Positions 20,208-58,482 are shown, numbered from the stretch's first letter. The stretch: DNA of 64,000 bases from Omnitrophica bacterium GWA2_41_15 (GCA_919902105.1 CAKKQO010000035.1:67547-131546), one strand, 5' to 3'. Notes: a model not told the origin generated them from the letters alone. Numbers and translations are program-made.

Positions 20208-21695
20208 ATGAGTCAGGTTCTTTTAGTATTTCCTGTACCGTCGGAAGAGCAAACAAAACTTGTGCCGCCTTTAGCCATACTTTATGTCGGCTCATACCTT
20301 GAAAGGGCTGGCGTATCTGTGTCTTATATAGATCTTCGCATTCATTCTTATGACGATTTGGGAAAAGAATTGGAGGATGTTCCTTTGATAGTAGGAGTGT
20401 CTTCGATGACCGGTATCCAGATCGAAGGCGCAATAAAAGTTCTAGAGATGTCCAAAGAGAAAGCGCCTGAAGCTGTTAGAGTTATGGGGGGCGTACATCC
20501 ATCCCTGCTTCCATTAGAGACTCTATCCGATCCGCTGGTCGACTTTGTTGTCATAGGAGAAGGAGAGAATACCTTATTAGAGCTTTTTGAGTTTATAGCG
20601 GAAGGAAAGACTGATTTTACCAAAATATTAGGTCTGGCTTGGAAAAAAAGAGGTGGACAGATAAGTATAAATGCTAATAGGCCGTTTATGGAGCTCGCCG
20701 ATTCTTGTCCTCCTATAACGGAGGCATCTAGGGCTCTGTACGCCTACTATCCTCTTGGCAAAGTTCAGGTCTCACGTGGGTGCCCCTATCGTTGTGCATT
20801 CTGTTATAATTTGAGTTTTAATAGAAGAAAATATCGCATAAAACCTTTGGAGGTAATTGATAGAGAGATCCATACTATCATGAAATTCGTTCCACGCATT
20901 AAACACTTTACGTTGCTTTCAGATAACGTGGGCAGGGATGTTGATAGACTTTTGGAAATGGGCAAGATATGTTCAAAGTATGGATTCACATTTCATACTG
21001 CCATAAGGCCGGAATATATTAATGAACGGCTTATCTCAGAATTGGAGGGGGTATGCGGATCTTTTCTTATCGGTGTTGAGTCTGTTGTCCCCAGAATACG
21101 TCGTATGATATACAAAGATAACGACGTTGAAGATACCAGAAGAGCTGCGCATTTACTTAAGAATTCTTCCATAAAGATGTATTACTCATTTATGACGGCC
21201 TTTCCAGATGAATCAAGAGAAGAGACCATCGCCTCCATGGATTTCGCCGATGAATTACGGGAAATAGATCCTACTTCGATAATAACCCCCTTTTTCTTGC
21301 TGACCCCATTTCCGGGAACTGAGCTATATGAATATGCATTAAGGCGGGGTTTTAAAAAGTCAGCCAATCTCAAGGATTGGAGCCAGTTTGCTCTGGGTAA
21401 AGTATCAACACCATGGATTGATCCCGATAATGAATATTTTACCGATTTATATCAAATGAGTATGTTGATTTATACCGACCCCAAAGAATACGAGAACAAT
21501 GATTTTGAAAAGGATTTTTTTGGTCATTTTCAGAGAATTGCTTGGGATAGATGGAGAGCTCGGACATTTGAATTTAGACGTGAATATGAATTGTTTAAAT
21601 CATATAATCGGAAGTTTAAGCAAGCTGGACTTATTAACTATGAAGAAGAGATGCAAAAGGCCTATTCTAAAAGTCAAACCAATAACGTAGATTAA
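20208..21695 (+). CDS. Cobalamin-binding-domain (class B) radical SAM enzyme #1
   Basis: N-terminal VGVSSMTG...VMGGVHPS...VVIGEGENT (B12-domain-like) plus SRGCPYRCAFCYN (CxxxCxxC). Start moved from the track TTG (20184) to the ATG at 20208, which follows GAAAGGAAAA. Confidence 0.85.
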   Translation: MSQVLLVFPVPSEEQTKLVPPLAILYVGSYLERAGVSVSYIDLRIHSYDDLGKELEDVPLIVGVSSMTGIQIEGAIKVLEMSKEKAPEAVRVMGGVHPSLLPLETLSDPLVDFVVIGEGENTLLELFEFIAEGKTDFTKILGLAWKKRGGQISINANRPFMELADSCPPITEASRALYAYYPLGKVQVSRGCPYRCAFCYNLSFNRRKYRIKPLEVIDREIHTIMKFVPRIKHFTLLSDNVGRDVDRLLEMGKICSKYGFTFHTAIRPEYINERLISELEGVCGSFLIGVESVVPRIRRMIYKDNDVEDTRRAAHLLKNSSIKMYYSFMTAFPDESREETIASMDFADELREIDPTSIITPFFLLTPFPGTELYEYALRRGFKKSANLKDWSQFALGKVSTPWIDPDNEYFTDLYQMSMLIYTDPKEYENNDFEKDFFGHFQRIAWDRWRARTFEFRREYELFKSYNRKFKQAGLINYEEEMQKAYSKSQTNNVD

Positions 21696-21725
21696 AAACT
21701 ATAGAATTTACCATAAATAAAGATA

Positions 21726-22862
21726 ATGAAAATTAATATGTGTGGGAGTATATTGACAATACCTTACCAATTGTCAAAGCATCTTCGGAAAAAAGGTATA
21801 GAGGTAAAGCTTTTTATCGATTCTTTATCAGAAGAGAAATCATACTTACCAGAATGGGAAGATGAAGATATTGAAGAAAATGGGTTGCCAAACTGGATTT
21901 ATAAAGAAAGAGTTAGCTTATATCGGTATTTTGGCGGGTTCAAAGAAGAACGAGAGTTTCTTAATTGTTTATCTGATTGCGATTTGATTCATACTCATGG
22001 AGAAGCAAGTATTTGGGGGAGTTTTACTAAAAAACCATATGTGTTTCAAAGCTATGGCTTTGATTTGTGCTATATGCCATTTTTAAAAGGTTCTTTGAAA
22101 CAGAGAATATTATCGTCTCTTATGCGAAGGGGGATAAGAAAGGCTTCTAAGATACTTATTCTGCCATATCAGATTCCTGCTATTAAGAGGCTAGGAATTT
22201 CATATGATAGGTATTCAAACCTATATTGCGGCATAGATACTCAAAAATATAAGAGAGCGGATGCTTCACTTGGAAATGAACTAAGGGAAAAATTCAAAGT
22301 AGATCTAATTTTATTTTCTCCAACAAGACATCAGTGGACAAATTCAGAAATTACAAATAAAGGCAATGATAGTTTAATTCGTGCAATCCATAAATTTTTG
22401 AAGGGCACTAAACAAAAATCTCTGTTTATATTTGTGGAAAAAGGGTCTGATGTAGCAAAAAGTAAAAGTTTGATTGATGAGATGGGAATAAAAGATAATA
22501 TTTTATGGATAGAGCCTGTCAACAAAAAAAAACTTATTGAATATTATAGTAATTCCGATATTGTGTTAGACCAATTTGTAGAGCCGGGAGAGCTGGGGCA
22601 GATAACCTTGGAGGCTATGTCTGTAGGGGTTCCGACGTTTATTTATTTGACCAATCCCAAAGGTTACTTTGAAGAGTCTCCACCTGTAGTTAATGTATCA
22701 ACTACTGATGAGATTGCTTCTGAGATGCTCAGGTTTGCAGATAATCCTGAGTTGAGAATTGAAGTAGGCAATAAATCGAGAGAGTGGATATTAAAGTATC
22801 GCGATTGGAATATAGTAGTAGATAAATATATATCTCTTTATAAAGAGATATTAGGCTTCTGA
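21726..22862 (+). CDS. GT-B fold glycosyltransferase (GT4-like)
   Basis: 378 aa. C-terminal EPGELGQITLEAMSVGVPTF resembles the GT4 E-x7-E region. Confidence 0.65.
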   Translation: MKINMCGSILTIPYQLSKHLRKKGIEVKLFIDSLSEEKSYLPEWEDEDIEENGLPNWIYKERVSLYRYFGGFKEEREFLNCLSDCDLIHTHGEASIWGSFTKKPYVFQSYGFDLCYMPFLKGSLKQRILSSLMRRGIRKASKILILPYQIPAIKRLGISYDRYSNLYCGIDTQKYKRADASLGNELREKFKVDLILFSPTRHQWTNSEITNKGNDSLIRAIHKFLKGTKQKSLFIFVEKGSDVAKSKSLIDEMGIKDNILWIEPVNKKKLIEYYSNSDIVLDQFVEPGELGQITLEAMSVGVPTFIYLTNPKGYFEESPPVVNVSTTDEIASEMLRFADNPELRIEVGNKSREWILKYRDWNIVVDKYISLYKEILGF

Positions 22863-22898
22863 AGATCATATTTATAAAATGAGTTACAAATAAAAAAA

Positions 22899-24392
22899 TT
22901 GGCAAATCTATCAGTTTATTTAAAAAAAATTGCTAATCATTCTGTTATTTATGGTGTAAGCAATTCTGTTACTGCGGCAGTCGGATATGTATTATTACCT
23001 ATATATGCAAGATTGCTTCTGCCGGAAGAGTTCGGAATATTTTCAACGATTAATATAACGGGAGCCGTATTGGGTATTATTTATGATATGGGATTGATCG
23101 CGGCGCTTTTTCGCTGGTATTTCGATTATTCTCAATCAGAAGAAGATAAAAGGAAAATAATAGTCTCCACAGTTTTGATATTCTATTTTATTACGTCTTC
23201 GATTGCGACAGTTATTATATTTTTCTTTTCACGCAGCCTATCGGGATTATTATTTAAAGGCCAGTATCAGCATTCGCCTCTCGTTCAGTTGATGATAGTA
23301 ACCACATATATAAATTTATTGCTCGGTGTCCCTCTAACAATTTTGAGATTAAAGGAAAAGGCATATTTATATATGAAAGTTTCTATCTTAAGAGGGATAG
23401 GGATATTAGCTATCACATTATTATATTTGGCTGTTTTGAAGGGCGGCTTGCTGGGGATATATAAAGGAGGGCTGTTGGTCTCTTTTATAATAGCAGCCGT
23501 ATTGTTTGGAGTAACATATAATGATTATATATTTAAATTCTCGGCTCCTGAGATTAAAAAGATGCTTATATTTGGTCTTATGTATTTGCCCACCATCATT
23601 TTTATGTGGATAATTAATTTTTCAGACAGGTACTTTCTAAACTATTATTCTACTCTCGAAGATGTGGGAATTTATTCCTTTGGCTATAAAATAGGGCAAA
23701 TTATTTTTTTAATGGTAACTGCGTTTTCTACTGCATGGACGCCGATATTGTTCTCAATTATTAAGGAAGATAACGCTAAAGCAATTCTTTCAACTATTAT
23801 GACTTACTTTTTTCTAACATTGTTTTCAATTGCATTATTAATGACGATATTTAGCGAAGATATAGTTAAATTGGTGTCTGTTGGAAAATATATAGAATCA
23901 TATAAGGTGGTATCTCTTATTTCTTTTTCATACTTTTTATATGGAATCTATGTGTTCTTGTTCAATGGCCTTATGATAACAAAGAGAATTGGAAGCCAGC
24001 CTATTATAATAGGACTCTCAGCGCTCCTGAACATTCTTCTAAATATATATTTAATACCGAGGTTTGGATATATTGGCGCCGCATACTCAACCCTTTTTAC
24101 CTATGCTGCGGTAGTGTTCGGAACATACGTAATGTCACAGCGGTGCTACTATATTAATTATGAAAAGGTAAGATTGTTTAAAATTACTGCTGCCGGGGCG
24201 TTAATTTATTTTATAAGCAATTATGACTTATTTGGAGATATGGCGGTTATAAAAATATTTTGGAAGCCCTTTTTGTTTATGATGTTTTTTTATATGTTGT
24301 ATATATGGAAGTTTTTTAATTTAAAAGAGTTGAATAAAGTAAAATCTTTATTTTTAGGTAAGTGCGAAGAACCATATTATGTCAGACATTAA
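22899..24392 (+). CDS. Wzx-type polysaccharide flippase (MOP superfamily)
   Basis: 497 aa with roughly 12-14 hydrophobic segments. N-terminus (SVIYGVSNSVTAAVGYVLLPIYARLL) is typical of polysaccharide biosynthesis/flippase proteins. TTG start. Confidence 0.75.
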   Translation: MANLSVYLKKIANHSVIYGVSNSVTAAVGYVLLPIYARLLLPEEFGIFSTINITGAVLGIIYDMGLIAALFRWYFDYSQSEEDKRKIIVSTVLIFYFITSSIATVIIFFFSRSLSGLLFKGQYQHSPLVQLMIVTTYINLLLGVPLTILRLKEKAYLYMKVSILRGIGILAITLLYLAVLKGGLLGIYKGGLLVSFIIAAVLFGVTYNDYIFKFSAPEIKKMLIFGLMYLPTIIFMWIINFSDRYFLNYYSTLEDVGIYSFGYKIGQIIFLMVTAFSTAWTPILFSIIKEDNAKAILSTIMTYFFLTLFSIALLMTIFSEDIVKLVSVGKYIESYKVVSLISFSYFLYGIYVFLFNGLMITKRIGSQPIIIGLSALLNILLNIYLIPRFGYIGAAYSTLFTYAAVVFGTYVMSQRCYYINYEKVRLFKITAAGALIYFISNYDLFGDMAVIKIFWKPFLFMMFFYMLYIWKFFNLKELNKVKSLFLGKCEEPYYVRH

Positions 24393-25146
24393 AAAAGATT
24401 TGGCTAATCTTATTTGTTTAACCATTGACGTTGAGTGGGCCTCTCCTGAAGTGCTCCAAGATATTATAACTCTACTAGATGAAAGAGAGTTACGTGCGAC
24501 TTTTTTTTGTACCCATGCCGATATTGATGTGGATGGCCATGAGCAGGCGATTCATCCGAACTTTCGACGTAATGGTGATACCATGCGGAAATTGAGTCAA
24601 GAAATGGGCGATACATTAAACCACTATACGGATAAGATGGTATATGAGTATGTTGTGCGACATACTAAGACCTTTTGTCCGGCGGCAGTAGGCGTGCGTT
24701 CTCATAGTCTATTTTATGATTCTGAACTTTTACCTATCTACCGACAGGCAGGAATAGAATATGATAGTTCTCATTCATTACCTTTAGCGTCCGGACTGTC
24801 TCCGACCTGGAAAGAGCATGATATTTTAGAGATGCCTATTTATTATGTAGATCACATTGATTTAATTAATCAAATGTCGGGATTCCGTTTGGAAGGATTG
24901 CGTATGGAACAACCAGGAATGAAGGTATTTGATTTTCATCCTAATATGGTTTTCCTTAATGCTGCAACGGAAGCTGATTATTTGGAAAGCAAATCCCATT
25001 ATCATGATTTTGAAAAATTGCTTAGCCTCCGCCGTTCGGGCCCGGGAATACGCAACTTGTTTCTCGATTTACTAGATTTTATAAAAAGTGAAAAACTGAT
25101 TACAACTACGTTGGCTGATGTTAATACTGCATACAGAGGAATATGA
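24379..25146 (+). CDS. Putative polysaccharide deacetylase-fold protein (CE4/ArnD/WbmS-like)
   Basis: 255 aa. LTIDVEWASPEVL...ATFFCTH and VRSHSLFYDS resemble deacetylase-fold proteins. Assignment is by pattern only. Confidence 0.4.
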   Translation: MSDIKKDLANLICLTIDVEWASPEVLQDIITLLDERELRATFFCTHADIDVDGHEQAIHPNFRRNGDTMRKLSQEMGDTLNHYTDKMVYEYVVRHTKTFCPAAVGVRSHSLFYDSELLPIYRQAGIEYDSSHSLPLASGLSPTWKEHDILEMPIYYVDHIDLINQMSGFRLEGLRMEQPGMKVFDFHPNMVFLNAATEADYLESKSHYHDFEKLLSLRRSGPGIRNLFLDLLDFIKSEKLITTTLADVNTAYRGI

Positions 25147-25175: not shown

Positions 25176-26111
25176 ATGGAACATAGTGAAGAATTTGAAA
25201 TCTTGGTTAGCCCAGAGACTGGTTTGCCTCTTAGGTATATCAATAGCCGCTTAGAAACGGAAACGGGAACTGAAAGTTTTCCTGTTCATAATGGAATTGC
25301 CTGTCTTGCAAGTGTTCAAAATCTGAGCGAAATTAAAAGGTATGAGATGGGTATATTTAACAGCATCCCTATTCAGGGTATCCCATATTTCAGAACATGC
25401 TTATTGAGAGATATAATGAAAGTGGTAAAGTCGGTTATAAGAAGTTTGAGAGGAGATCTTGGAAAATTTGTAGTTGCGGAAATGGGCGGCGGAGAAGGTT
25501 ACTGGGCAAGGTTTATAAAAGAAGATTTACGGGATGCTATAGTTTTTGTTTGCGATTTAAGTATGGATGCCCTTGCTAGAGCGCCGGACCATTTAAAAAA
25601 GGTTTGCGCGGATATATCCCGCCCAATTTTTAAGAAAAAATCTATTCACTTGGCTTCATTCTGGGTGAGTTTGCATCATCTCGAAAAAGCTGATATGAGA
25701 AACGCATTATTTGAGATTAGCAAGGTATTGGATGATGATGGCGTGCTGCTTATATTTGAGCCAAATTATGCATTCCTTCCACGAAAAATTATGTACAGAA
25801 CGAGGCTGGGTAAAGATGTATATTTCGATAAGCATGAGCAGGCAATAGATTTCTCCAAGATTAATAAAATAGCGGAAAGCTTTAATCTCGTTGAGGTCGT
25901 TACTCATTTCATGAATCCTCCATATAATTATGATTTCATTAGAAGACTTAGAAGAGGGGGCATATATTTGCCGGTCGTAGAGGCGCTTCATCGAATCGAT
26001 AAATGTTTATTAAGTCCAATAGTCGGCGATATGTTTTCCGCCAAACAGTCTCGGCTTAAAAAATATTTTTCGTTATATGGACTTTCTATTTACAGAAAAA
26101 GAAAGGTATAA
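25176..26111 (+). CDS. Class I SAM methyltransferase with an N-terminal Trm112-like segment
   Basis: 311 aa. N-terminal LVSPETGLPL...VHNGIACL, then VAEMGGGEGYW (motif I) and SLHHLE. Confidence 0.7.
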   Translation: MEHSEEFEILVSPETGLPLRYINSRLETETGTESFPVHNGIACLASVQNLSEIKRYEMGIFNSIPIQGIPYFRTCLLRDIMKVVKSVIRSLRGDLGKFVVAEMGGGEGYWARFIKEDLRDAIVFVCDLSMDALARAPDHLKKVCADISRPIFKKKSIHLASFWVSLHHLEKADMRNALFEISKVLDDDGVLLIFEPNYAFLPRKIMYRTRLGKDVYFDKHEQAIDFSKINKIAESFNLVEVVTHFMNPPYNYDFIRRLRRGGIYLPVVEALHRIDKCLLSPIVGDMFSAKQSRLKKYFSLYGLSIYRKRKV

Positions 26112-26121
26112 ATCTGGTTTT

Positions 26122-26982
26122 ATGTCTCAAAGTTGTTTCGTTTGTAAAAATGATGAATTGTTATTAAAAGGCTCTGTGAAATCATATTCTCTCATCGAAT
26201 GTTCTCGCTGCGGTTTACAGTTTCTTGATCCTATCCCCCGCAAAAAGGACTTAGATCAGATTTATTCTAATTATTATAAAGCATGGGGTATCGAGCAATG
26301 GGGGCATGAAGTATCTGCCATGAAAAGAAAAACCTTCCGGGGGTATTTATCGCAAGTGGCTAAATTCATATCTTGTGGTAAATTGCTTGATATAGGATGT
26401 GCGACGGGCGAATTGATGGAGGTTGCGCAAGAGATGGGGTTTGATGTTTACGGAGTTGAAATATCGCAAGAAGGAATACGCCGCTGTAAAAAGAAGTTCG
26501 GAGGGAAGAAAATAATAGACACTGAGTTGGAATACGGGAATTTCCCGCCCGATTTTTTTGATGTTATTACTCTTTCTGATGTGTTGGAACATATGCCTGT
26601 CCCGCGACCTTTCTTAGATATTTTATGGACTATGCTTAAACCCGATGGCATTCTAATGACTGTTACTCCTGATACGTGTTCGTTCGCCAGAAGATTAATG
26701 GGAATGAAATGGCTGCATTATAAAGAAGAGCATATTTTTTACTACAATCGCTCTAATATAGCGCGGCTTTTTGCTCCTAAATTCAAAGTATTGACACAAA
26801 AAACCGCATATAAAAATTTGACTCTTACTTATTGCGCGAGCGTGATTAACGGATATATAGACCACGGCTATAAACGGTTTTTTACTTATTTAATAACGCT
26901 TCTTCCTTTCCGTATAAGGCATTTTCCGTTCCTTTTTAACATTGGCGAGATGTTTATTTTGTGCAGAAAGGGAAAAGAGTAA
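26122..26982 (+). CDS. Class I SAM methyltransferase with an N-terminal Cys4 zinc ribbon
   Basis: CFVCKN...CSRCGLQFLDP followed by LLDIGCATGEL. Paralogous in layout to 44520 and 61124. The track start 26077 overlaps the upstream gene by 35 nt; the ATG at 26122 avoids this. Either start is possible. Confidence 0.7.
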   Translation: MSQSCFVCKNDELLLKGSVKSYSLIECSRCGLQFLDPIPRKKDLDQIYSNYYKAWGIEQWGHEVSAMKRKTFRGYLSQVAKFISCGKLLDIGCATGELMEVAQEMGFDVYGVEISQEGIRRCKKKFGGKKIIDTELEYGNFPPDFFDVITLSDVLEHMPVPRPFLDILWTMLKPDGILMTVTPDTCSFARRLMGMKWLHYKEEHIFYYNRSNIARLFAPKFKVLTQKTAYKNLTLTYCASVINGYIDHGYKRFFTYLITLLPFRIRHFPFLFNIGEMFILCRKGKE

Positions 26983-33413: not shown

Positions 33414-33456
33414 TTAATTTTTATTTCGTGAAAGCTTTGATAAACCGATAAAAAAT

Positions 33457-42777: not shown

Positions 42778-42778
42778 A

Positions 42779-45470: not shown

Positions 45471-45474
45471 TTTT

Positions 45475-48316: not shown

Positions 48317-48320
48317 AAAA

Positions 48321-49121: not shown

Positions 49122-49135
49122 CATCATAATGTCCA

Positions 49136-52411: not shown

Positions 52412-53047
52412 ATGAACAGGTTTGATGGTATGGCTAAGAAAATTATCACATTTCTATCAGTTTATATATATAACTTTTTAAGATATATATTAGAAAATGG
52501 CTTTAAAAAGCAGGAACAAATTATACAAAATATATTGTTAAATAATAATCATATTGAACCAAAAATATTAGATGTGGGGTGTGGTACCGGAACTTACGCT
52601 AGTTTTTTTAAGGCAAACAATTATTTTGGCATAGAGATCGATCCAGCCTATATTAAATATGCAAAGCAACATAAGAACGGAAACTTCCTATGCGCAAATG
52701 CGCGTTATATGCCATTTAAAAGTAATACATTTGGCGCGGTATATGTTATCGCAATATTTCATCATCTATCCGCGTCTCATATAACCGATATTTTAAAGGA
52801 GCTTAAAAGAATCACTTTACCAAGGGGATTAATTCTGATTATGGACCAAAGCAATATAAAAATTAATCTTGGAGTAGATTGGTTGTTCCAGATAATCCGT
52901 TATTTTGATAAAGGAAAATTTATTCGAAAACCAAAAGAAAATCTGGATATTGTATCCATGGAACCCGATCTTACCATTACAGATGAATGGACATTTAGAA
53001 GCGGCCTGATTACCTATCAGGCGATGTTTATAAAAAAAGATGGTTGA
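52412..53047 (+). CDS. Class I SAM methyltransferase
   Basis: 211 aa. ILDVGCGTGTY motif I and IFHHLS. Confidence 0.75.
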   Translation: MNRFDGMAKKIITFLSVYIYNFLRYILENGFKKQEQIIQNILLNNNHIEPKILDVGCGTGTYASFFKANNYFGIEIDPAYIKYAKQHKNGNFLCANARYMPFKSNTFGAVYVIAIFHHLSASHITDILKELKRITLPRGLILIMDQSNIKINLGVDWLFQIIRYFDKGKFIRKPKENLDIVSMEPDLTITDEWTFRSGLITYQAMFIKKDG

Positions 53048-53783
53048 TTCTAAACTTTTAAAAATCCCCGATTATTCTATAGTGATTTTGTGTTATCAGG
53101 CAGAAGAATATTGTAGAGTATTTGTTGCCGAAGTTATTGAGAATATTAGCAAGTTGAATATAGATTATGAACTTATTTTGGTAGCAAACTATTGGGAAAA
53201 TTCAAATGATCAAACGCCGCGGATAGCACAAGAATTGAGAAATGATAATGAATATATTAAGGTGGTAGCGCTTGCTAAAAAGGGCGGCATGAGTTGGGAT
53301 ATGATAAGCGGTTTAAAGGCATGTACTGGGAGAGTAATTGCAGTTATCGATGGGGATGGGCAGATGCCAGCTTATGATTTGGTTCGTGTCTATAAAAAGT
53401 TAAAAGATGAAAACTTGGATTTTGTTAAGACATATAGAACAAAAAGAGAAGATAATTGCTATAGAAACTCCATATCAGTAGTATACAATTTTATATTTAG
53501 AATATTATTTCCAGGCCTATCAGTTCGTGATGTAAATTCTAAACCTAAAATATTTACAAGGGAGGTATATCAAAAATTAAATTTAACTTCATCTGGTTGG
53601 TTTGTTGATGCTGAAATAATGATTCAAGTCAGAAGATTGCATTTAAAAATAGGAGAAATTTCAACATTTTTTAAGCTTAATACGCGGTCATCTTATGTTA
53701 AATTTGAAGCTATATGGGAGTTTATAAAAAATCTTATTAAAGTAAGAATTTGTGAATTCAAAACAGACAAAAAGGTAAAATGA
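53040..53783 (+). CDS. GT2 glycosyltransferase (DPM1/GtrB-like catalytic domain, no C-terminal TM)
   Basis: 247 aa. YSIVILCYQAEE and IDGDGQMP motifs. Confidence 0.8.
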   Translation: MVDSKLLKIPDYSIVILCYQAEEYCRVFVAEVIENISKLNIDYELILVANYWENSNDQTPRIAQELRNDNEYIKVVALAKKGGMSWDMISGLKACTGRVIAVIDGDGQMPAYDLVRVYKKLKDENLDFVKTYRTKREDNCYRNSISVVYNFIFRILFPGLSVRDVNSKPKIFTREVYQKLNLTSSGWFVDAEIMIQVRRLHLKIGEISTFFKLNTRSSYVKFEAIWEFIKNLIKVRICEFKTDKKVK

Positions 53784-53808: not shown

Positions 53809-55254
53809 ATGAAAATACTTTATGTCGTTAAAGATATGTCATATATTGAATTGCATGGCATTATGCAGCTTTCTGCCCTTTCAAAACAAAGGGGGCATAA
53901 GAGTTGTTTAGGGATAATTAATGAACATGATATATTAAAGGTGATTGAAAAGGAAAATCCAGATATTGTAGCATTTAGCATGCTTACTTTAGATGCGAGT
54001 TCATTTGAGAATTTGGCAAGAGATATTAAAAATAAACATAAAAATCTTACTATAATAGCGGGAGGGCCGCATGCAACCTTCAATCCTGAGATTGTAGATA
54101 CTTGGGAGGTTGATGCAATAATTTGTGGAGAAGGCGATGATGCTTTTGTAGATTTTTTAAATGCAGCTGAAGGAGGACATGATTATTCAGATATTAAAAA
54201 TTTACATACAAAGGCAAAAAAGAATCCATTACGCCCATTAATAGATAGCTTAGACAAACTTCCATTTCCTGATAGAGAATTAGTTTATTTTGAGGGCGGA
54301 CATTTACTTAATCTGAATGTTAGAACATTTATGACATCAAGAGGATGCGCCTATAGGTGCACATACTGTTTTAATAATAAATATAATATGCTATATCGCA
54401 ATAAGGGCAAAATTTTCAGAAAACGCTCTGTTGATAATGTTATTGAAGAAATCTTAAAAGTTAAAGAGAAATATCCTTTTGATTTTATTAGATTTGGAGA
54501 TGATAATTTTATATACGGAGTAGACAAATGGATGGAAGAATTTTCTGTAAAATATAAAAAAATGGTTAATCTGCCTTTTTATTGCCTAATAAGGCCAAAT
54601 CTAATTAATAATGAAGTGGTTAGGCTCTTGAGATCAACCGGATGTCATTCTATAGGCATGTCAATTGAGGCAGGTTCTGAGAGTATTAGGGAGAAGATAT
54701 TAAAGAGAGGAATGACAGATGAAGAGTTAATGAAAGCTTTTGACATCGTTCAAGGAAGCGGAATTAAGGTTTTTGCAAATAGTATAGCAGGAATTCCATT
54801 TGCAACGATTAAGGACGAAATGAAATCCATAGAATTAGCTATTAAATGCAAGCCCGCTTACCCCAATTTTACAATCTTTACCCCTTTTCCTGGTGTTGAA
54901 TTAAGTGATGTAGCTTACAAAAATAATTTAGTAAATGGTGACTTGCCTCAAAGAACAACCGATAGGTCAGTTTTGAATTGTTTTACGAAGAAAGAAAAAG
55001 ACATTCAAGAAAATATTGTTACCTTAGGCCCTCTGATTGTTAGATTTCCATTTTTAAAATTGTTTATTTTAAATCTTATAATGCACTTGCCACCGAATAG
55101 ATTATTTAGATATATTTGGGTTGTTAATAAAGGCTATTTAGGGAGTAAATATATCTGGCCTATTAAAATGGCTTTTTTATTAAAGATAAAATTGTTTTTA
55201 AAATCTTTTTTATTTGAAATACCAGAAAAACGTATTACTGAAACTCGCAGGTAG
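53809..55254 (+). CDS. Cobalamin-binding-domain (class B) radical SAM enzyme #6 (close paralog of 57037)
   Basis: MKILYVVKD... N-terminus parallels MKILFVLKE of 57037, so the ATG at 53809 is preferred over 53803. IAGGPHATF...IICGEGDDA; LPFPDREL; SRGCAYRCTYCFN. Confidence 0.85.
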   Translation: MKILYVVKDMSYIELHGIMQLSALSKQRGHKSCLGIINEHDILKVIEKENPDIVAFSMLTLDASSFENLARDIKNKHKNLTIIAGGPHATFNPEIVDTWEVDAIICGEGDDAFVDFLNAAEGGHDYSDIKNLHTKAKKNPLRPLIDSLDKLPFPDRELVYFEGGHLLNLNVRTFMTSRGCAYRCTYCFNNKYNMLYRNKGKIFRKRSVDNVIEEILKVKEKYPFDFIRFGDDNFIYGVDKWMEEFSVKYKKMVNLPFYCLIRPNLINNEVVRLLRSTGCHSIGMSIEAGSESIREKILKRGMTDEELMKAFDIVQGSGIKVFANSIAGIPFATIKDEMKSIELAIKCKPAYPNFTIFTPFPGVELSDVAYKNNLVNGDLPQRTTDRSVLNCFTKKEKDIQENIVTLGPLIVRFPFLKLFILNLIMHLPPNRLFRYIWVVNKGYLGSKYIWPIKMAFLLKIKLFLKSFLFEIPEKRITETRR

Positions 55255-55265
55255 GAGTATTAAAA

Positions 55266-57032
55266 GTGGTTACTAATAAAAGCTCAGGAATTTTGTTAAT
55301 TATTTTACTAATTTTTATATCGTTCTTATTAAGGATATGGCATATAGACTGGGGATTGCCATATATCCATAATCATGATGAGTTGAACCATATAGAACAG
55401 TCACTACAGGTCGGCTCCGGCAAACTCGAGCCTCAAGGGTTAATGCATGGTACCCTTATAACATATCTATTATCTATAGAATATGGAATTCTTTATATTT
55501 TAGGAAAAATTATAGGCAGATATTTATCAACAGATGGTTTTCTCTTATCCTATTTAACTGATCCGACAATATTTTTTATAATAGGGAGGGTTACAATAGT
55601 ATTATTGAGCGTGGGCTCTATTTTTGTTACATATTTAATAGGTAAGAAACTGTTTAATGAAAGGGTTGGAATAATATCTGCCCTATTTATAGCTTTTTCC
55701 CCTACACATTTCATAAATTCCACATGCATTAAAGATGATATACCGGCAACCTTTTTTTGCACCCTGTTCTTTTACTTTACATCTTTATATCTTTTAGCTG
55801 ACAATAGTACTTTAAAAAGGAATAGATTTTACTACGCATCCGGTTTTTTTCTTGGGTTAGCTATTGCAGCAAAATTGACCGCTATTCCGGGGATTGTTAC
55901 CTTTTGTTTGGCATTTTCCTTAAAAGAACTATCTGACTCAGAAGGATATAAAAAATATCTTATCTTTTTGTGGGATAGAAGATTTTTAAAGGGGATGCTT
56001 TTTGTCCTTACAGGTTTTTTTATAGCTGACCCTTATGCGGTCATTAATTATAAAAAATTTATCTATGGTATATTATTCATGAAAAATCAGTATATGGAAA
56101 ATGTGATAACAGTAAAAAATACTCAGATTTTCTATTTTACAAATCACCTGCCGGATATGATTGGTATCCCACTGACTATATTTTTCTGTATAAGTGTAAT
56201 ATATTTTGTTTTTAAACCTTCTAATAAATTGATTTTATTATTATCTTTTCCAGCAGTTTATTATCTGATATTTAACAAATCTACGGGTTTTGCACACCAT
56301 ATTTTAACCGCACTTCCATTTATTGTTATCCTAATCAGTGTATTTTTAGATAAAATATATTTTATTATAAATAAATGGAATATGGTCAAATCGGCAGTTG
56401 TTTTGCCTTTTTTGCTTATCTTGTTTATTACTCCCGAAGCTTTAAATACTATCAGATATATATATGTGCTTGGTAGTGCAGATACAAGGATATTGGCAAA
56501 AAAATGGATTGAAGATAATATTCCTTCCAATAAGTCTATTTTTATAGAGGGAGGGATAAAAAATCTAATTGTTTTGGGGCCTCAATTGAGAGGGAATTTA
56601 GATACCTTAAAGGATGATTTTAATTTTGTTGTTTCTAGAGGTGGAAGTGGAAAGTTACAAAAATTGCTTATTAATAGTTATAAGGATGGTGGGAAAACTT
56701 ATATGCTATATAAGGCATCACCAGAAATAAGACAAGAAGATATAGATAAATTTAATGCCGATTATATAATAACAAATGGTTTTGTAGATTTGGATGTCGG
56801 GGAATTAGAGTATTGGAGAGATGAAGGATATTATATAAGAAGAGAGGCAGTGCATAGAAAAATTAATGAAAGATATGAATTGATAAAACAGTTTAAGCCT
56901 TTTCCAAGTTTTAGCATGTATTTTCCTTTCGCAAGCCGGGATTATAATGAATTAAAGAGTATTAACTTATTTGATTGTCAGAAGGAAATAATACCAGGAC
57001 CAGAGATAAAGATATTTAAAAGGAAGACTTAA
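55266..57032 (+). CDS. GT-C fold membrane glycosyltransferase (ArnT/PMT_2-like) #3
   Basis: 588 aa. GTG start 8 nt after AGGAG. HNHDELNHIE first-loop acidic motif; GRVTIVLLSVGSIFVTYLIGKKLFNERVGIISALFIAFSPTHF. Confidence 0.7.
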   Translation: MVTNKSSGILLIILLIFISFLLRIWHIDWGLPYIHNHDELNHIEQSLQVGSGKLEPQGLMHGTLITYLLSIEYGILYILGKIIGRYLSTDGFLLSYLTDPTIFFIIGRVTIVLLSVGSIFVTYLIGKKLFNERVGIISALFIAFSPTHFINSTCIKDDIPATFFCTLFFYFTSLYLLADNSTLKRNRFYYASGFFLGLAIAAKLTAIPGIVTFCLAFSLKELSDSEGYKKYLIFLWDRRFLKGMLFVLTGFFIADPYAVINYKKFIYGILFMKNQYMENVITVKNTQIFYFTNHLPDMIGIPLTIFFCISVIYFVFKPSNKLILLLSFPAVYYLIFNKSTGFAHHILTALPFIVILISVFLDKIYFIINKWNMVKSAVVLPFLLILFITPEALNTIRYIYVLGSADTRILAKKWIEDNIPSNKSIFIEGGIKNLIVLGPQLRGNLDTLKDDFNFVVSRGGSGKLQKLLINSYKDGGKTYMLYKASPEIRQEDIDKFNADYIITNGFVDLDVGELEYWRDEGYYIRREAVHRKINERYELIKQFKPFPSFSMYFPFASRDYNELKSINLFDCQKEIIPGPEIKIFKRKT

Positions 57033-57036
57033 CAAA

Positions 57037-58482
57037 ATGAAAATCTTATTTGTTCTTAAAGAAACAACTATGTATGAGAGGATGGGTGTAATGTATTTAA
57101 GTTCTGCACTAAAATCCCAAGGTAATAAGGTAAAACTTGTTTTGGCTGAAAGCATGGGTATCGAAAGATTAAAGGATTTTGTTAGAAGTTATTCTCCTGA
57201 GATTATAGGTTATAGTGCAATGACGGGTGAATATAATAGGCTGGTTGAAATAAATAAGCATTTAAAAAATAATCATGATTTCTTGGCTGTCTTCGGTGGT
57301 CCACATCCAACTTTTTATCCAAAAATAATTGAAGACGAAGGATGTGATGCGATCTTTATAGGGGAAGGAGATATAACGTTTCCAGAGTTTTGCCGCAGGA
57401 TAGAACAAAAAGAAAACTACTGGGAAACACCGGGCACTATCGTAAAATATGCCGGACAAATTATCAGAAATCCGCTCATGCCTTTGGTTGAGGATCTAGA
57501 TTCGCTTCCTTTTCCGGACCGTGACCTAATGTATAGCGCAGATCAATTTTTGATGGAGGGATCCAGCAAAATATTTTTTTCAACTCGTGGATGTCCATCT
57601 AAGTGTACTTATTGTTTTAACGAAAAATATAACGAAATTTTTAAGGGGAAGGGGCGCATTCTTCGCCATCGTTCACCTGAAAATTTGGTTGAAGAAATTT
57701 CTGAAGTAAAAAAGAAGTATCCATTAGATATAGTTTATTTGCTGGATGATACATTTCTTTATAAACCTGTAGATTGGTTTAACAAATTTAAGGAGCTTTA
57801 TAAAGAGAATATAAATCTTCCTTTTTCTTGTAATGTTCGTCCTAATGCGGTCACCGAACAAAATATCTCTCTGTTAAAGGATGTGGGGTTAGTATCGGTA
57901 AATATTGGCATTGAATGTGGGAATGAAGATGTGGCTAACACTGTTCTTCAGCGACATATTAGTAATAGTCAGATTATTAATGCTTGCCGGATATTACAAA
58001 AATACGGTATTAAAATCAGTACATTGAATATAGTCGGTTTGCCGGTTAAGAATAGTTATCAGGTAGATCTGGAAACACTTGACCTTAACATAAAGATTAA
58101 ACCCACCTTTGCGTTGGCTTCAATTCTATGCCCATATCCCGGAACGCCCATTGAAACCTATTCAAGAGAGAATGGCTTTATTGCCAATAACAGTGTGTTT
58201 TTGGAAACGAATAAACGCGCTTCAGTTCTTAATTTTTCTTCAAAAATGGAAAAAAGGAGAATCGAGAATCTTCATAAATTATTCGGGATTATCGTAGAGT
58301 TTAGTTTCTTGCGAAAGTTTACCACTTTTTTATCTAGTTTACCATTAACCCGAGTATATACAAGCCTCTTTTATCTTTGGTATGGATATAACTATAAGAT
58401 AAGGCTATTTCCTTTTAGATCCATCAGAAAAGAATTAGGTAGCTACTTAAGATTTTGGTGGAAAATGATTCAAAAAAATTAA
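57037..58482 (+). CDS. Cobalamin-binding-domain (class B) radical SAM enzyme #7 (close paralog of 53809)
   Basis: 481 aa. VFGGPHPTF...IFIGEGDIT; LPFPDRDL; TRGCPSKCTYCFN. Confidence 0.85.
   Translation: MKILFVLKETTMYERMGVMYLSSALKSQGNKVKLVLAESMGIERLKDFVRSYSPEIIGYSAMTGEYNRLVEINKHLKNNHDFLAVFGGPHPTFYPKIIEDEGCDAIFIGEGDITFPEFCRRIEQKENYWETPGTIVKYAGQIIRNPLMPLVEDLDSLPFPDRDLMYSADQFLMEGSSKIFFSTRGCPSKCTYCFNEKYNEIFKGKGRILRHRSPENLVEEISEVKKKYPLDIVYLLDDTFLYKPVDWFNKFKELYKENINLPFSCNVRPNAVTEQNISLLKDVGLVSVNIGIECGNEDVANTVLQRHISNSQIINACRILQKYGIKISTLNIVGLPVKNSYQVDLETLDLNIKIKPTFALASILCPYPGTPIETYSRENGFIANNSVFLETNKRASVLNFSSKMEKRRIENLHKLFGIIVEFSFLRKFTTFLSSLPLTRVYTSLFYLWYGYNYKIRLFPFRSIRKELGSYLRFWWKMIQKN

Follow-up and report, generated by a model that had tools for sequence, protein, structure and literature searches.

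Gene content and extent of the locus

The window analysed here, a stretch of 64,000 nucleotides, comes from the MAG of an uncultured Candidatus Omnitrophota bacterium from Hainich groundwater. Domains were assigned to all 58 ORFs of the window using Pfam and NCBIfam. Between 20184 and 58482, 12 of the 35 consecutive plus-strand ORFs encoded radical SAM (rSAM) enzymes, close to the 12 among about 37 ORFs given in a preliminary description, so that a third of the central genes specify oxygen-independent radical enzymes. Exactly these 12 exceeded the gathering score of Radical_SAM PF04055 (48–90 bits vs. a threshold of 29.5), and each contained a single CX3CX2C motif. The remaining 23 ORFs of the window included one rSAM gene, BioB. 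If a few per cent is assumed as the background rate for an anaerobe, the binomial probability of 12/35 is of the order of 1e-11; the density is not due to chance. Pairwise identity among the twelve proteins was only 22–35%, and none of them reached a curated NCBIfam cutoff.

These genes belong to a larger co-directional glycan locus (Table 1). The locus had been described as starting at 20208; it begins at 10227, with a nucleotide-sugar block included, runs through the 3' edge of the window and extends at least 9 kb further, giving a total of at least 63 kb. From 14346 to 64000, every gene lies on the plus strand, and no gap exceeds 99 bp. The housekeeping genes have a GC content of 0.42 and the cluster one of 0.32, a drop typical of surface-glycan islands. 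The proposed continuation past the 3' edge was found on the source contig, but the next ~9 kb contained no phosphoglycosyltransferase, Wzy or Wzz, and their absence is therefore not just an edge effect. No further rSAM genes were present in these ~9 kb, and across about 73 kb (window and downstream contig) there was neither an initiating phosphoglycosyltransferase nor a Wzy, Wzz or WaaL.

Wzx, GT4, GT9, two GT2, PMT_2-type GT-C, methyltransferase and DegT-like genes were interleaved with the rSAM genes as described, but two of the counts did not hold within 20208–58482: six of the seven methyltransferases lie inside it and the seventh (61124) beyond, while three of the four GT-C genes lie inside and the fourth (58455) begins 28 bases before the end and runs past it. 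In the 5' block, only TIGR03026 (NDP-sugar dehydrogenase) passed a curated cutoff; at the family level, these genes recall the WbpA/B/E/D pathway for diacetamido-uronic acids. No ADP-heptose genes were found in the window. A PilT-like ATPase is also encoded within it (Pfam).

Two small membrane proteins (41722..42777), 29% identical over 82 aa, had no Pfam or NCBIfam match; speculatively, and by comparison with ArnE/ArnF and GtrA, they may work as a pair that flips sugars carried on polyprenyl phosphate. The split transketolase-like ThDP enzyme, whose NCBIfam matches were below cutoffs, is a candidate for a two-carbon transfer step on a sugar.

Table 1. Features of the locus, with positions in the window
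Feature	Position	Strand	Basis
Nucleotide-sugar precursor block, nine genes	10227..20108	+	Pfam, NCBIfam
NDP-sugar 6-dehydrogenases, two	10227, 11576	+	Pfam, NCBIfam
SDR epimerase/dehydratases, three	13015, 14346, 17480	+	Pfam, NCBIfam
DegT aminotransferases, two	15284, 18427	+	Pfam, NCBIfam
GFO/IDH/MocA sugar 3-dehydrogenase-like gene	16461	+	Pfam, NCBIfam
Hexapeptide acetyltransferase	19569	+	Pfam, NCBIfam
Class-B rSAM number 1	20208..21695 (mechanical ORF from 20184)	+	Pfam
GT4 glycosyltransferase	21726 (within 21726..25146)	+	Pfam
Wzx-type flippase, about 12 TM segments	22899	+	Pfam, TM prediction
WbmS-like polysaccharide deacetylase	24379	+	Pfam
Methyltransferases MTa (25176) and MTb (26077)	25176..26982	+	Pfam
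Small rSAM, accessory module member	26985..28019	+	Radical_SAM 90 bits, without SPASM match
Core twitch/SPASM rSAM of module	28026..29090	+	SPASM 29.5 bits
Core class-B rSAM of module	29087..30595	+	B12-binding 57 bits, Radical_SAM 85 bits
GT9 glycosyltransferase (heptosyltransferase family), module centre	30624..31829	+	Glyco_transf_9 88 bits
Two class-B rSAM, accessory module members (31842, 33457)	31842..34887	+	Pfam
SPASM/twitch rSAM	34937..35935	+	SPASM 36 bits, Radical_SAM 63.5 bits
332-aa protein, weak FemAB-family match	35942 (within 35942..38584)	+	Profile search
Methyltransferase	36937	+	Pfam
DegT-like protein, match confined to residues 101-174	37649	+	Profile search
PMT_2-type GT-C membrane glycosyltransferase, about 10 TM segments	38550	+	Pfam, TM prediction
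Class-B rSAM, after 38550 GT-C	40136 (block 38550..41680)	+	Pfam
Two small paralogous membrane proteins, 172 and 175 aa, 3-4 TM each	41722..42777	+	
Split transketolase-like ThDP enzyme, N-terminal half 42752, C-terminal half 43588	42752..44523	+	Pfam
Methyltransferase	44520 (within 44520..46464)	+	Pfam
GT2, ArnC/GtrB-like, two C-terminal TM segments	45475	+	Pfam, TM count
Twitch-like rSAM, nearest solved relative BlsE	46475..47584	+	Radical_SAM 85 bits
Methyltransferase	47585 (within 47585..51414)	+	Pfam
SDR	48240	+	Pfam
PMT_2 GT-C	49136	+	Pfam
Metallophosphoesterase, YaeI/LpxG type	50581	+	Pfam; NCBIfam below cutoffs
SPASM/twitch rSAM	51411..52388	+	SPASM 57 bits
Methyltransferase	52412 (within 52412..53783)	+	Pfam
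GT2	53040	+	Pfam
Alternating block: class-B rSAM 53809, GT-C 55266, class-B rSAM 57037, GT-C 58455	53809..59915	+	Pfam
GT4	59923 (within 59923..64000)	+	Pfam
Methyltransferase	61124	+	Pfam
RmlD-like reductase	62131	+	Pfam
GT1-family gene	runs past window end at 64000	+	Pfam
Methyltransferase, AsnB-like amidotransferase, hexapeptide transferase, transglutaminase-like gene	downstream on source contig		
Second flippase, another methyltransferase, GT1-DUF218 gene	then downstream on source contig		

Two groups of rSAM enzymes

Seven rSAM proteins of 476–523 aa (ORF starts 20184, 29087, 31842, 33457, 40136, 53803 and 57037) showed the cobalamin-type class-B layout previously attributed to them, with GGxH[PA][ST] followed by G[EDY]G[EDS] in all seven. 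An N-terminal B12-binding domain, PF02310, scored 54–72 bits in six of them (threshold 32.1); the 33457 protein, which contains the motif GGPHPT, scored 26.6 bits, below threshold. These features support the class-B architecture, a B12-binding domain plus rSAM core, in all seven, with cobalamin as a putative cofactor. The first of them, at 20208 (B12-binding 72 bits, Radical_SAM 61 bits, CPYRCAFC at residue 200), had MgmA (9ccb) and AprD4 as its nearest solved sequences. AprD4 was also nearest to the 40136 protein (E 1.5e-13), and no PDB sequence match was obtained for the 31842 protein. The 53809 and 57037 proteins are 35% identical. An AlphaFold model of the latter (pLDDT 92.5) retrieved AprD4 as the top Foldseek match, followed by TsrM, OxsB, MgmA, CysS and TokK. 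AprD4 is a sugar diol-dehydratase and is not known to use cobalamin. A cobalamin-type layout does not mean a C-methylase, and AprD4 is the best structural match of the modelled protein.

Five smaller rSAM proteins of 325–394 aa (ORF starts 26961, 28026, 34931, 46400 and 51411) had been assigned SPASM/twitch tails. SPASM PF13186 was above threshold in three of them (29.5, 36.1 and 57.1 bits vs. 21.5) and gave no Pfam match in the 26961 and 46400 proteins, both of which keep their C-terminal Cys across orthologues. Each of the five has 3–5 conserved C-terminal Cys, a set that fits a single, twitch-like auxiliary cluster and not a full seven-Cys SPASM, so the assignment stands in this narrower form. 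The tail LPCCVDYNGEMVLCN...CEKCGDYY quoted for this group occurs in the 34931 protein, in which C267, C314 and C317 are conserved. In the 46475 protein, C300, C318, C347 and C350 are conserved in 17/17 sequences, and this protein matched BlsE (7vob) with an E-value of 5e-16. The C-terminal domain of the 51411 protein matched the twitch domain of BtrN; its family is tiny, with 29 clusters. The AlphaFold model of the 28026 protein (pLDDT 92) had SkfB, SuiB, MoaA, BlsE and CteB as Foldseek neighbours, SkfB and SuiB being among the top. Both models agree with the architectures proposed for the two proteins.

The start positions 20208, 26985, 34937, 46475 and 53809 are in-frame ATGs, and retrieved database gene calls of 344 and 481 aa fit the starts 26985 and 53809, respectively. 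Reaction types of the twelve proteins are guesses, since no curated NCBIfam cutoff was reached and only distant relatives exist in the PDB (E 1e-7 to 1e-16, TM 0.5–0.7).

A conserved GT9/methyltransferase/rSAM module

Positions 25176–34887 hold a conserved module, newly recognized here, of a GT9 glycosyltransferase, two methyltransferases and up to five rSAM genes. Its distribution was determined in 20 non-redundant loci containing an orthologue of the 28026 gene, each of at most 21 kb. The 28026 family has invariant C51/C55/C58 plus C261/C279/C314 across 31 sequences and is rare, comprising 135 clusters at 90% identity, with 209 representatives at E<=1e-30 among 1.84 billion. A 29087-type gene was present in 19/20 loci, almost always directly 3' of the 28026 orthologue, and homologues with 55–63% identity occurred in Nitrospirae, Desulfuromonadaceae, Pelobacteraceae and SAR324. 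Orthologues of the GT9 were found in 18/20 loci, of MTb in 18/20 and of MTa in 13/20; those of the accessory rSAM genes occurred in 10 (26985), 11 (31842) and 5 (33457) of the 20. The 26985 protein kept C-terminal Cys 273, 280, 291, 321 and 324 in 11/11 sequences. The GT9 fell below the curated cutoffs of WaaC, WaaF and WaaQ (heptosyltransferases I–III; 83 vs. 134.6) and matched 3tov and 1psw in the PDB.

The loci contained a median of five rSAM ORFs (range 2–9), and the module recurred in Nitrospirota, Desulfuromonadales, Magnetococcales, SAR324 and many metagenome contigs, as a unit shared horizontally among several bacterial phyla. Its neighbours in these loci are envelope-glycan genes and included a Wzy_C (O-antigen ligase family) gene with a GT2 in one locus, a cytidylyltransferase with a CTP_transf/PfkB HldE-like gene in a second, YfhO in a third, and a YfhO-like GT-C, AsnB, NeuB (nonulosonic acid), a GT28-like gene, GNAT and PIG-L in a fourth. 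In Ca. Magnetomonas, the module adjoins an N-terminal half of the ThDP enzyme with 44% identity.

The neighbourhood survey directly covered 3 of the 12 rSAM families. Two window families outside the module, those of 57037 and 51411, also lay among NDP-sugar or glycosyltransferase genes elsewhere. In the cultured Magnetospira sp. QH-2, the 57037 family is located among dehydratase, DegT, hexapeptide, GT2 and TylC3-type C-methyltransferase genes. In a JGI metagenome contig (L098), the family lies in a similar NDP-sugar gene set, which includes orthologues (37–48% identity) of window genes 14346, 15284 and 16461. For the 51411 family, two loci with six rSAM genes per 21 kb were found, both with GT2, MT and DegT, one with PMT_2 and the other, the Omnitrophota locus L101, with NTP-transferase and ThDP enzymes; a Saganbacteria-annotated locus (L100) combined two further rSAM genes with NDP-sugar and ThDP genes. 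Comparably rSAM-dense glycan loci therefore exist in other Omnitrophota, and the window locus is not a one-off.

Proposed function

The previous observation of an rSAM-rich cluster is confirmed, and its surface-glycan context is strengthened by the comparative loci beyond the window; the interpretation built on it is partly supported. We consider it probable, at roughly 60%, that the locus directs assembly of a glycoconjugate of the cell envelope with extensive radical tailoring of its sugars; an LPS core or an O-antigen-type glycan is the likeliest form. The acceptor, the substrates and every reaction are what we infer from the observed domain architectures, module conservation and neighbourhoods; radical tailoring of sugars is deduced from the gene neighbourhoods. 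The 5' block (10227–20108) would supply UDP-uronic and amino or acetamido sugars, which cytoplasmic GT4, GT9 and GT2 enzymes would assemble. Lipid-linked intermediates would be exported via Wzx-type flippases, and the four PMT_2-type GT-C proteins, supplied by ArnC/GtrB-like GT2, would add sugars in the periplasm. In this bacterium of anoxic groundwater, the twelve rSAM enzymes would tailor the sugars without oxygen, together with the split transketolase-like enzyme and class I methyltransferases, of which there are at least seven. Proposed reactions of the class-B enzymes are methylation at unactivated carbons and, with AprD4 as a model, dehydration of diols; for the twitch enzymes, BtrN, DesII and BlsE serve as precedents for oxidation, epimerisation, deoxygenation or decarboxylation. 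The module probably adds one heavily edited, possibly heptose-derived, sugar onto the core. The below-cutoff scores of the GT9, the lack of ADP-heptose genes in the window and the missing phosphoglycosyltransferase, Wzy, Wzz and WaaL count against this overall reading.

An unlikely alternative is that the acceptor is a protein, with general O-glycosylation of S-layer, pilin or other envelope proteins, PMT_2 proteins as protein O-glycosyltransferases and rSAM enzymes tailoring the protein-linked glycan. PMT_2 and PMT are protein O-mannosyltransferase families, although PMT_2 also includes ArnT-type lipid A glycosyltransferases. The PilT-like ATPase and the lack of Wzy, Wzz and WaaL in about 73 kb agree with such an acceptor, as does an MptE-like gene, from a Pfam family that includes Maf motility-accessory proteins, adjoining one 57037 homologue in Desulfovibrio. 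However, no target protein gene is present in the locus. The module has at its centre a GT9, which belongs to a family known from the LPS inner core, and elsewhere it lies beside O-antigen-ligase-family and HldE-like genes.

It is rather improbable that the rSAM enzymes methylate, cross-link or cyclise a lipid (lipid A acyl chains, polyprenyl carriers or membrane lipids), with glycosyltransferases decorating a glycolipid. The best NCBIfam matches of the class-B proteins do include HpnJ, HpnR and ladderane-lipid B12 rSAM, and the small rSAM proteins match GDGT-MAS/Tes, but all of these matches, at about 50–125 bits, are far short of the curated cutoffs of 225–650. Class-B genes alternate with integral-membrane GT-C genes and a YaeI/LpxG-like phosphoesterase is present; yet NDP-sugar enzymes dominate the neighbourhoods, and no hopanoid, ether-lipid, fatty-acid or Lpx genes occur in the window or the related loci examined.

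Slightly less probable again is a secondary-metabolite cluster, in which the product of the locus or module would be a glycolipid or a diffusible glycoside, aminoglycoside- or nucleoside-like, instead of a structural envelope glycan. To our knowledge, the characterised sugar-acting rSAM enzymes (GenK, GenD1, BtrN, AprD4, DesII, BlsE) are all from antibiotic pathways, and such enzymes are the nearest solved relatives here. L098 and one module locus also contain carbamoyltransferase genes, the latter together with Antibiotic_NAT and NUDIX genes. Wzx flippases, four GT-C, the GT9 and O-antigen-ligase-family neighbours instead point to polymer or LPS assembly, and the window has neither a resistance, regulator or exporter set of the kind usual in antibiotic clusters nor a detectable inositol or aminocyclitol synthase.

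A RiPP cluster, with class-B C-methyltransferases and SPASM maturases acting on a ribosomal peptide glycosylated by the GT9, is highly improbable. The combination of SPASM domains, several class-B rSAM genes and methyltransferases is reminiscent of proteusin clusters (polytheonamide PoyB, PoyC, PoyD), the top structural matches of the 28026 model (SkfB, SuiB, CteB) are RiPP maturases, and NCBIfam matches include ApyD and rSAM_ocin_1 (both below cutoff). However, in 19 loci the surroundings of the module held no precursor gene or conserved small ORF, the window has no intergenic room for one, protease and ABC exporter are absent, the model contains no RRE since only two helices (about 40 aa) precede the rSAM core, and the module is constantly linked to GT9 and glycan genes.

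SPASM enzymes are best known as peptide maturases, which counts against a sugar substrate. For several of the rSAM enzymes here, the closest solved relatives, though distant, act on carbohydrates (AprD4, BlsE and the BtrN twitch domain). A literature search found no published or characterised equivalent locus, in line with the earlier statement that no characterised cell-surface glycan locus was known to have such rSAM density. Since it includes a module that several phyla have in common, the cluster probably makes cell-surface sugars by a chemistry that nobody has described.

Extent and composition of the glycan locus

By exact protein matches, the window belongs to a 142,877-bp contig from Hainich groundwater (well H51, 0.1 um filter), the proteins of which carry the NCBI label of a Candidatus Omnitrophota MAG. 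All 58 ORFs of a mechanical ORF listing of the window lie on the + strand, and their proteins are named here by the coordinate of the ORF start (w28026 and so on). Housekeeping genes occupy the part upstream of 10227, including an aminotransferase gene and the leu, ATPase and biotin genes listed in the table. The preliminary description, made from the bare sequence, let a surface-glycan cluster start at 20208. The locus in fact begins ~10 kb earlier, because a block of nucleotide-sugar genes fills the stretch from 10227 to 20108. Intergenic gaps are at most 99 bp from 14346 onward and at most ~50 bp within 20184-58482. GC content declines stepwise from ~0.42 in the housekeeping genes to ~0.32 in the 3' part of the locus, and GC skew is positive throughout positions 1-64000. 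Together with the single coding strand, this pattern fits a surface-glycan island that is hypervariable, made up of several modules and acquired horizontally. Rfam gathering thresholds and ARAGORN gave no regulatory RNA in the window, and in particular no cobalamin riboswitch.

The cluster had also been expected to run past the 3' edge of the window. Glycan genes do continue there, with GT1, methyltransferase, AsnB-like amidotransferase, hexapeptide transferase and transglutaminase-like genes, followed by a second Polysacc_synt flippase, another methyltransferase and a GT1-DUF218 gene, but the missing phosphoglycosyltransferase, Wzy and Wzz do not appear among them. The genes called downstream include no further radical SAM (rSAM) gene. 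At ~66.6 kb in window coordinates, two copies of the contig differ by ~43 bp. The product of the AsnB-like gene is consequently 517 aa long in one copy, where no domain is assigned to it, and 627 aa long in the other, where GATase and Asn_synthase domains are recognized; the difference reflects an assembly artefact or variation between strains.

Within the locus, the GT9 protein matches its family (PF01075, 88 bits against a threshold of 22) and scores under the WaaC/WaaF/WaaQ cutoffs (TIGR02195, 83 against 134.6; TIGR02193, 52 against 185; TIGR02201, 55 against 170 bits). Four GT-C proteins match PMT_2 (33.6-48.1 bits against 26.1) and have 7-10 predicted transmembrane (TM) segments, as expected of ArnT/PMT-type enzymes. 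A Wzx flippase was recognized (PF01943, 69 bits). No match to Bac_transf, Glycos_transf_4, Wzy_C or Wzz was found in the 58 window ORFs or the genes called downstream (~73 kb), and of the set that marks a Wzx/Wzy-dependent locus (phosphoglycosyltransferase, Wzx, Wzy, and Wzz or WaaL) Wzx alone is present; the remaining ones may be encoded at another place in the genome. The locus has at least seven genes for class I methyltransferases, or nine with the two called downstream. Two adjacent small membrane proteins, w41722 and w42250, are weak paralogues (29% identity over 82 aa) that belong to no Pfam or NCBIfam family and match no flippase family. A relaxed Pfam scan of both and of w35942 gave no usable match. 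The pair could be a flippase for lipid-linked sugars.

Positions of features in the window and in related contigs; single coordinates are ORF starts unless a contig is named
Feature	Position	Description
leuC-like gene	904-2163	aconitase family
PilT/T2SSE-type ATPase gene	2296-3345	splits leuC-like from leuD-like gene; unusual insertion
leuD-like gene	3469-3969	aconitase family
Biotin operon	4265-10147	bioB, bioF, alpha/beta hydrolase (bioH-like), bioC, bioD, bioA; apparently complete; directly upstream of glycan locus
Nucleotide-sugar block	10227-20108	two NDP-sugar 6-dehydrogenases, three SDR epimerase/dehydratases, two DegT aminotransferases, GFO/IDH/MocA sugar dehydrogenase, hexapeptide acetyltransferase
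Largest gap in glycan locus	13969-14345	377 bp, between TviC-like epimerase gene and next SDR gene; no Rfam match; may be an internal promoter site
rSAM-rich part	20184-58482	35 consecutive ORFs
Recurring module	25176-34887	
Methyltransferase MTa	25176	
Methyltransferase MTb	26077	
GT9	30624	
DegT-like gene	37649-38584	311 aa; aminotransferase model matched over residues 101-174 only; may be a degenerate or repurposed PLP enzyme
Small membrane proteins	41722-42777	starts 41722 and 42250; 172 and 175 aa; 3-4 TM segments; between class-B rSAM gene and split transketolase
Split transketolase	42752	
GT2	45475	two C-terminal TM segments
Metagenome locus L033 (contig Ga0074045_10000033)	1-21059	nine rSAM ORFs in 21 kb around the core pair, then cytidylyltransferase, then HldE-like protein with reversed domain order (CTP_transf then PfkB)
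ENA assembly (L008)	14498-14542	extra ~43 bp relative to Logan copy
Logan copy (L009)	14498	identical to window

Domain architecture of the twelve radical SAM proteins

The preliminary description had counted twelve rSAM enzymes in the cluster, seven of cobalamin type and five of SPASM/twitch type, and had proposed Pfam searches and structure prediction as checks. In a Pfam search of all 58 window ORFs, PF04055 exceeded its gathering cutoff in 12 of the 35 consecutive ORFs of 20184-58482 (48.5-90.2 bits against 29.5), and each of the twelve proteins has one CX3CX2C motif; the total is thereby borne out, with BioB as the only other rSAM protein of the window. The start codons proposed earlier are in-frame ATGs, database product lengths for 26985 and 53809 fit them, and the Cys-rich C-terminal motif quoted at the time is real. 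Recent duplication as the source of the twelve genes is ruled out by pairwise identities of only 22-35%, which mark the products as distinct enzymes.

The cobalamin-type (class-B) layout of the seven larger proteins (476-523 aa) also stands. An N-terminal B12-binding domain is fused upstream of the rSAM core, PF02310 passes its gathering score in six (54-72 bits against 32.1), and GGxH[PA][ST] followed by G[EDY]G[EDS] is common to all seven. The seventh protein, w33457, reaches 26.6 bits, which is under the PF02310 threshold; it aligns with the other six and carries GGPHPT.

The assignment of the five small enzymes (325-394 aa) holds in part. Pfam SPASM (PF13186) is above threshold in w28026, w34931 and w51411, and w26961 and w46400 have no Pfam match to it. 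The full seven-Cys SPASM motif (PF13186/TIGR04085), which would hold two auxiliary [4Fe-4S] clusters, was found in none; instead, three to five C-terminal Cys are conserved per family, in keeping with a twitch domain, that is, a truncated SPASM with 3-4 conserved Cys after the rSAM core. These comprise five Cys kept in 11 of 11 aligned sequences for w26961, CX17CX28CX2C kept in 17 of 17 for w46400, Cys 261, 279 and 314 invariant in a 31-homologue alignment for w28026, and the pattern C...CC...CX2C in w34931 and w51411. Since w28026 is an rSAM core with a short C-terminal cluster domain and three invariant auxiliary Cys, the name twitch-like suits the five enzymes better than SPASM in its strict meaning, and each is predicted to bind one auxiliary cluster, as in BtrN- and MoaA-like twitch enzymes.

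Relation to characterized families and structures

None of the twelve proteins reached any curated NCBIfam cutoff (best scores 37-124 bits, cutoffs 131-850). The nearest-scoring models include HpnJ, BchE, ApyD, MoaA, NirJ and AhbD, and scores stayed below cutoff for the equivalogs AprD4 (NF033070; 38-68 bits against 500) and BlsE (TIGR04466; 60.6 against 400 for w46400) as well as for the lipid and cofactor models HpnJ, HpnR, BchE, MoaA, NirJ and AhbD. Sequence searches of the PDB gave remote matches only: MgmA (9ccb) and AprD4 for w20184; MgmA, TokK and AprD4 for w29087; AprD4 and MgmA for w40136; SkfB, MoaA, GDGT-MAS and BlsE for w28026. The top match of w46400 was BlsE (E 5e-16), the BtrN twitch domain aligned to the C-terminus of w51411 (residues 254-321), and w31842 had no PDB sequence match. 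Filing any of the twelve as HpnJ, BchE, MoaA, AhbD, AprD4 or BlsE was rejected on these results, and all twelve fall outside characterized families.

Structure prediction was carried out for one protein of each architecture. The AlphaFold model of w57037 (pLDDT 92.5, built on 32 homologues) superposes best on AprD4 (TM 0.68-0.71), and then on TsrM, OxsB, MgmA, CysS and TokK, which confirms the predicted class-B architecture. The best match, AprD4, is a sugar diol-dehydratase of the same fold that is not known to use cobalamin. A methylase role for the class-B proteins should for this reason not be taken for granted; it is an assumption, with cobalamin binding and methyl transfer being predictions. 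The model of w28026 (pLDDT 92, 31 homologues) shows the core and cluster domain preceded by two helices only, and its structural neighbours are SkfB, SuiB, MoaA, BlsE and viperin at TM 0.5-0.6.

A module recurring across phyla

A scan of GTDB species genomes identified relatives of the class-B protein w29087 at 55-63% identity in a Nitrospirae MAG (MYbin3), Desulfuromonadaceae, Pelobacteraceae and SAR324, and tblastn with all window proteins demonstrated that their neighbours are conserved too. The twitch-like w28026 belongs to a rare family (135 clusters at 90% identity with E ≤ 1e-20 among 5.8 billion; 209 representatives with E ≤ 1e-30 among 1.84 billion) with named hosts in Ignavibacteriales, Nitrospirota (including the complete genome of Ca. 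Magnetomonas plexicatena), Magnetococcales, Oligoflexia, Desulfobacterales, Nitrospinota and Omnitrophota. Gene contexts were taken from three look-ups and 79 metagenome loci and annotated with phmmer. Twenty non-redundant loci were at least 8 kb long and carried a w28026 orthologue. A w29087-type class-B gene was present in 19 of them, almost always as the next gene, GT9 in 18, MTb in 18, MTa in 13, and orthologues of w31842, w26961 and w33457 in 11, 10 and 5, respectively. These loci (≤ 21 kb) contain two to nine rSAM ORFs, with a median of five. On these tallies, 25176-34887 is one instance of a module that recurs with a GT9, a pair of methyltransferases and between two and five rSAM genes.

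Elsewhere, the neighbours of the module are envelope-glycan genes, as seen in precomputed annotations and in Pfam scans of its flanks. They comprise a Wzy_C (O-antigen ligase family) protein and GT2 (L019), a cytidylyltransferase and a CTP_transf/PfkB protein resembling HldE, the enzyme that makes ADP-heptose (L033, the only locus with such a gene beside the module), and YfhO-like GT-C, AsnB, NeuB, GT28-like, GNAT and PIG-L genes that together form a nonulosonic-acid gene set (L026). Further flanks hold YfhO (L016), a sulfotransferase together with an N-terminal transketolase half that shares 44% identity with w42752 (L015), and DegT, carbamoyltransferase and dTDP-sugar isomerase genes (L017).

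Magnetotactic bacteria are many among the named hosts of the module or of the w57037 family (L011, L015, L016, L097): Nitrospirae MYbin3, from a survey of such bacteria, Ca. Magnetomonas plexicatena, Magnetococcales and Magnetospira sp. QH-2. This may reflect the sampling of microoxic sediments or a real link.

Radical SAM-dense glycan loci beyond the module

The w57037 family is large (at least 2,679 matches at E ≤ 1e-30). In the cultured Magnetospira sp. QH-2 (FO538765, ~3.765-3.787 Mb), its gene lies among those for SDR, cupin, TylC3-type NDP-hexose C-methyltransferase, dehydratase, DegT, GT2, hexapeptide transferase and MBOAT proteins, and in another locus (L098) among hexapeptide transferase, GFO, DegT, epimerase, methyltransferase and GT2 genes. 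Several neighbours of the family are 37-48% identical to the window proteins w14346, w15284 and w16461. The w51411 family, by comparison, is tiny (29 clusters). Its relatives in another Omnitrophota genome (L101) and in a 189-kb contig occur in regions with six rSAM genes per 21 kb, both with GT2, methyltransferase, DegT and epimerase genes, to which the contig adds PMT_2 genes and L101 a sugar nucleotidyltransferase and a ThDP enzyme. In a Saganbacteria-annotated locus (L100), a relative adjoins two E1-type ThDP pairs, three SDR dehydratase/epimerases and two class-B rSAM genes. As these neighbourhoods show, rSAM-dense glycan loci recur in Omnitrophota and in further uncultured lineages, accompanied by ThDP enzymes of two-carbon transfer.

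Proposed function and alternatives

We hypothesize that a mobile module for radical editing of glycans (GT9, a twitch rSAM enzyme, one to four class-B rSAM enzymes and two methyltransferases) circulates in anaerobic and microaerophilic diderms of several phyla, where it would furnish the LPS core with a sugar that is multiply C-methylated, deoxygenated or rearranged in its carbon skeleton. In the Omnitrophota locus, it would be stacked with rSAM/GT-C and ThDP modules to yield a hyper-modified envelope glycan, and the twelve enzymes would be founders of new carbohydrate-acting rSAM subfamilies. This reading is tentative, and we give it a probability of about 0.35.

Beyond domain architecture and gene neighbourhood, we infer every reaction of the mechanism. 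The 5' block would make UDP-uronic and amino or acetamido sugars, which cytoplasmic GT4, GT9 and GT2 enzymes would assemble on a lipid or core acceptor. GT2 enzymes of ArnC/GtrB type, such as w45475, would make polyprenyl-phosphate sugars, w41722 and w42250 may flip them, and the four GT-C enzymes would transfer them on the periplasmic side. Radical enzymes would stand in for oxygen-dependent tailoring: those of class B would C-methylate or dehydrate, and the twitch enzymes would oxidize, epimerize, deoxygenate or decarboxylate, with the BlsE-like w46400 possibly acting on a uronic acid. The split transketolase would add or move a two-carbon unit, and the class I methyltransferases would O- or N-methylate.

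The main rival concerns the acceptor, which could be protein rather than LPS, as PMT_2 is also the family of protein O-mannosyltransferases and one w57037 homologue adjoins an MptE-like gene, of a family that includes the Maf motility-accessory proteins. A secondary-metabolite cluster is possible for some of the related loci, though the Wzx, GT-C, GT9 and O-antigen-ligase neighbours match it poorly. A RiPP cluster is unlikely: no small ORF family is common to the 19 module loci and the window, the window has no intergenic space for a precursor gene, no protease or exporter is present, and w28026 has no RRE, as only two helices precede its core in the model. For lipid modification, the sole indications are sub-threshold matches to HpnJ, ladderane and Tes models, and no lipid-synthesis genes are nearby.

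If the radical glycan-editing reading is true, rSAM sugar chemistry, known from a handful of antibiotic pathways, is used at large scale for the cell surface of uncultured anaerobes, and a dozen uncharacterized enzyme subfamilies gain a testable substrate class, of relevance to both radical SAM enzymology and microbial glycobiology. It predicts C-methyl, deoxy and branched sugars unreported in LPS or envelope glycans. The module of five to eight genes is small enough for heterologous expression, and experiments are feasible because cultured Magnetospira sp. QH-2 has a w57037 homologue. Omnitrophota are ultra-small and reported to be possibly host-dependent, and an unusual, probably hydrophobic surface glycan would bear on their attachment, phage evasion and host interaction.

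Comparison with known systems

In full-text literature searches, neither rSAM-dense glycan loci nor the GT9 module turned out to be described, in agreement with the earlier statement that no characterized surface-glycan locus with such a density of rSAM genes was known. An Omnitrophota genome preprint mentions radical SAM solely as a domain inside giant proteins, and describes LPS or capsule glycosyltransferases as hypervariable cargo.

The sugar-acting rSAM enzymes of antibiotic pathways (class-B GenK/GenD1; AprD4; twitch BtrN; DesII; BlsE) have the same two architectures as the window enzymes. The similarity is remote but specific, with AprD4 as the top structural match of w57037 and a top sequence match of w40136, w20184 and w29087, BlsE as the top match of w46400, and BtrN at the w51411 C-terminus. 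The NDP-sugar dehydratases and aminotransferases of the window also resemble those of deoxysugar pathways. However, identity is only 14-20%, and the antibiotic enzymes occur singly or in pairs in clusters of Actinobacteria and the Bacillus group, whereas the window has twelve in a flippase/GT-C/GT9 envelope locus of an uncultured anaerobe. Proteusin RiPP clusters (polytheonamide) likewise combine several class-B and other rSAM enzymes with SAM methyltransferases in one operon; in contrast to these, the window lacks a precursor, RRE, protease and exporter, and the module is constantly linked to GT9 and glycan genes.

With LPS core (waa) and Wzx-dependent O-antigen or capsule loci, the window shares GT9, GT4, GT2, Wzx-type flippases, the nucleotide-sugar block, low GC and the downstream AsnB-like amidotransferase, and the module adjoins Wzy_C/WaaL-family and HldE-like genes in other genomes. 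It differs in the lack of phosphoglycosyltransferase, Wzy, Wzz and WaaL in ~73 kb and in a GT9 that falls below the waa-type cutoffs. The full-text searches turned up no published O-antigen or core locus in which rSAM genes go beyond an occasional single one; a Brachyspira plasmid block is an example with one (PMC4267127). The GT2 with C-terminal TM segments, the four ArnT-like GT-C enzymes and the small multi-TM pair are arranged as one would expect for the synthesis, flipping and transfer of a polyprenyl-phosphate sugar, as in the Arn (ArnC/ArnE-F/ArnT) and Gtr systems, but the small proteins match no flippase family, and neither system has a counterpart to the alternation of GT-C with class-B rSAM genes.

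Branched-chain sugar pathways use ThDP-dependent enzymes such as YerE and E1 pairs of the AviB1/AviB2 type. Similar enzymes (ALS/YerE-like or E1 alpha/beta pairs) are found in the rSAM-rich L100 and L101, and a transketolase N-terminal half lies beside the module in Ca. Magnetomonas; the split enzyme of the window, however, is of transketolase type, not ALS or E1 type. For the product, the nearest published precedent found is the heavily methylated S-layer O-glycan of Kuenenia stuttgartiensis (PMC5088730), to be compared with at least seven class I methyltransferases and up to seven class-B enzymes in the window, although its methyl groups were interpreted as O-methylation and the organisms are unrelated; a text search of that paper gave no mention of radical SAM or of a gene cluster. 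As a whole, the architecture is a new and extreme combination of known kinds, the envelope glycan locus and the sugar-acting rSAM enzyme.
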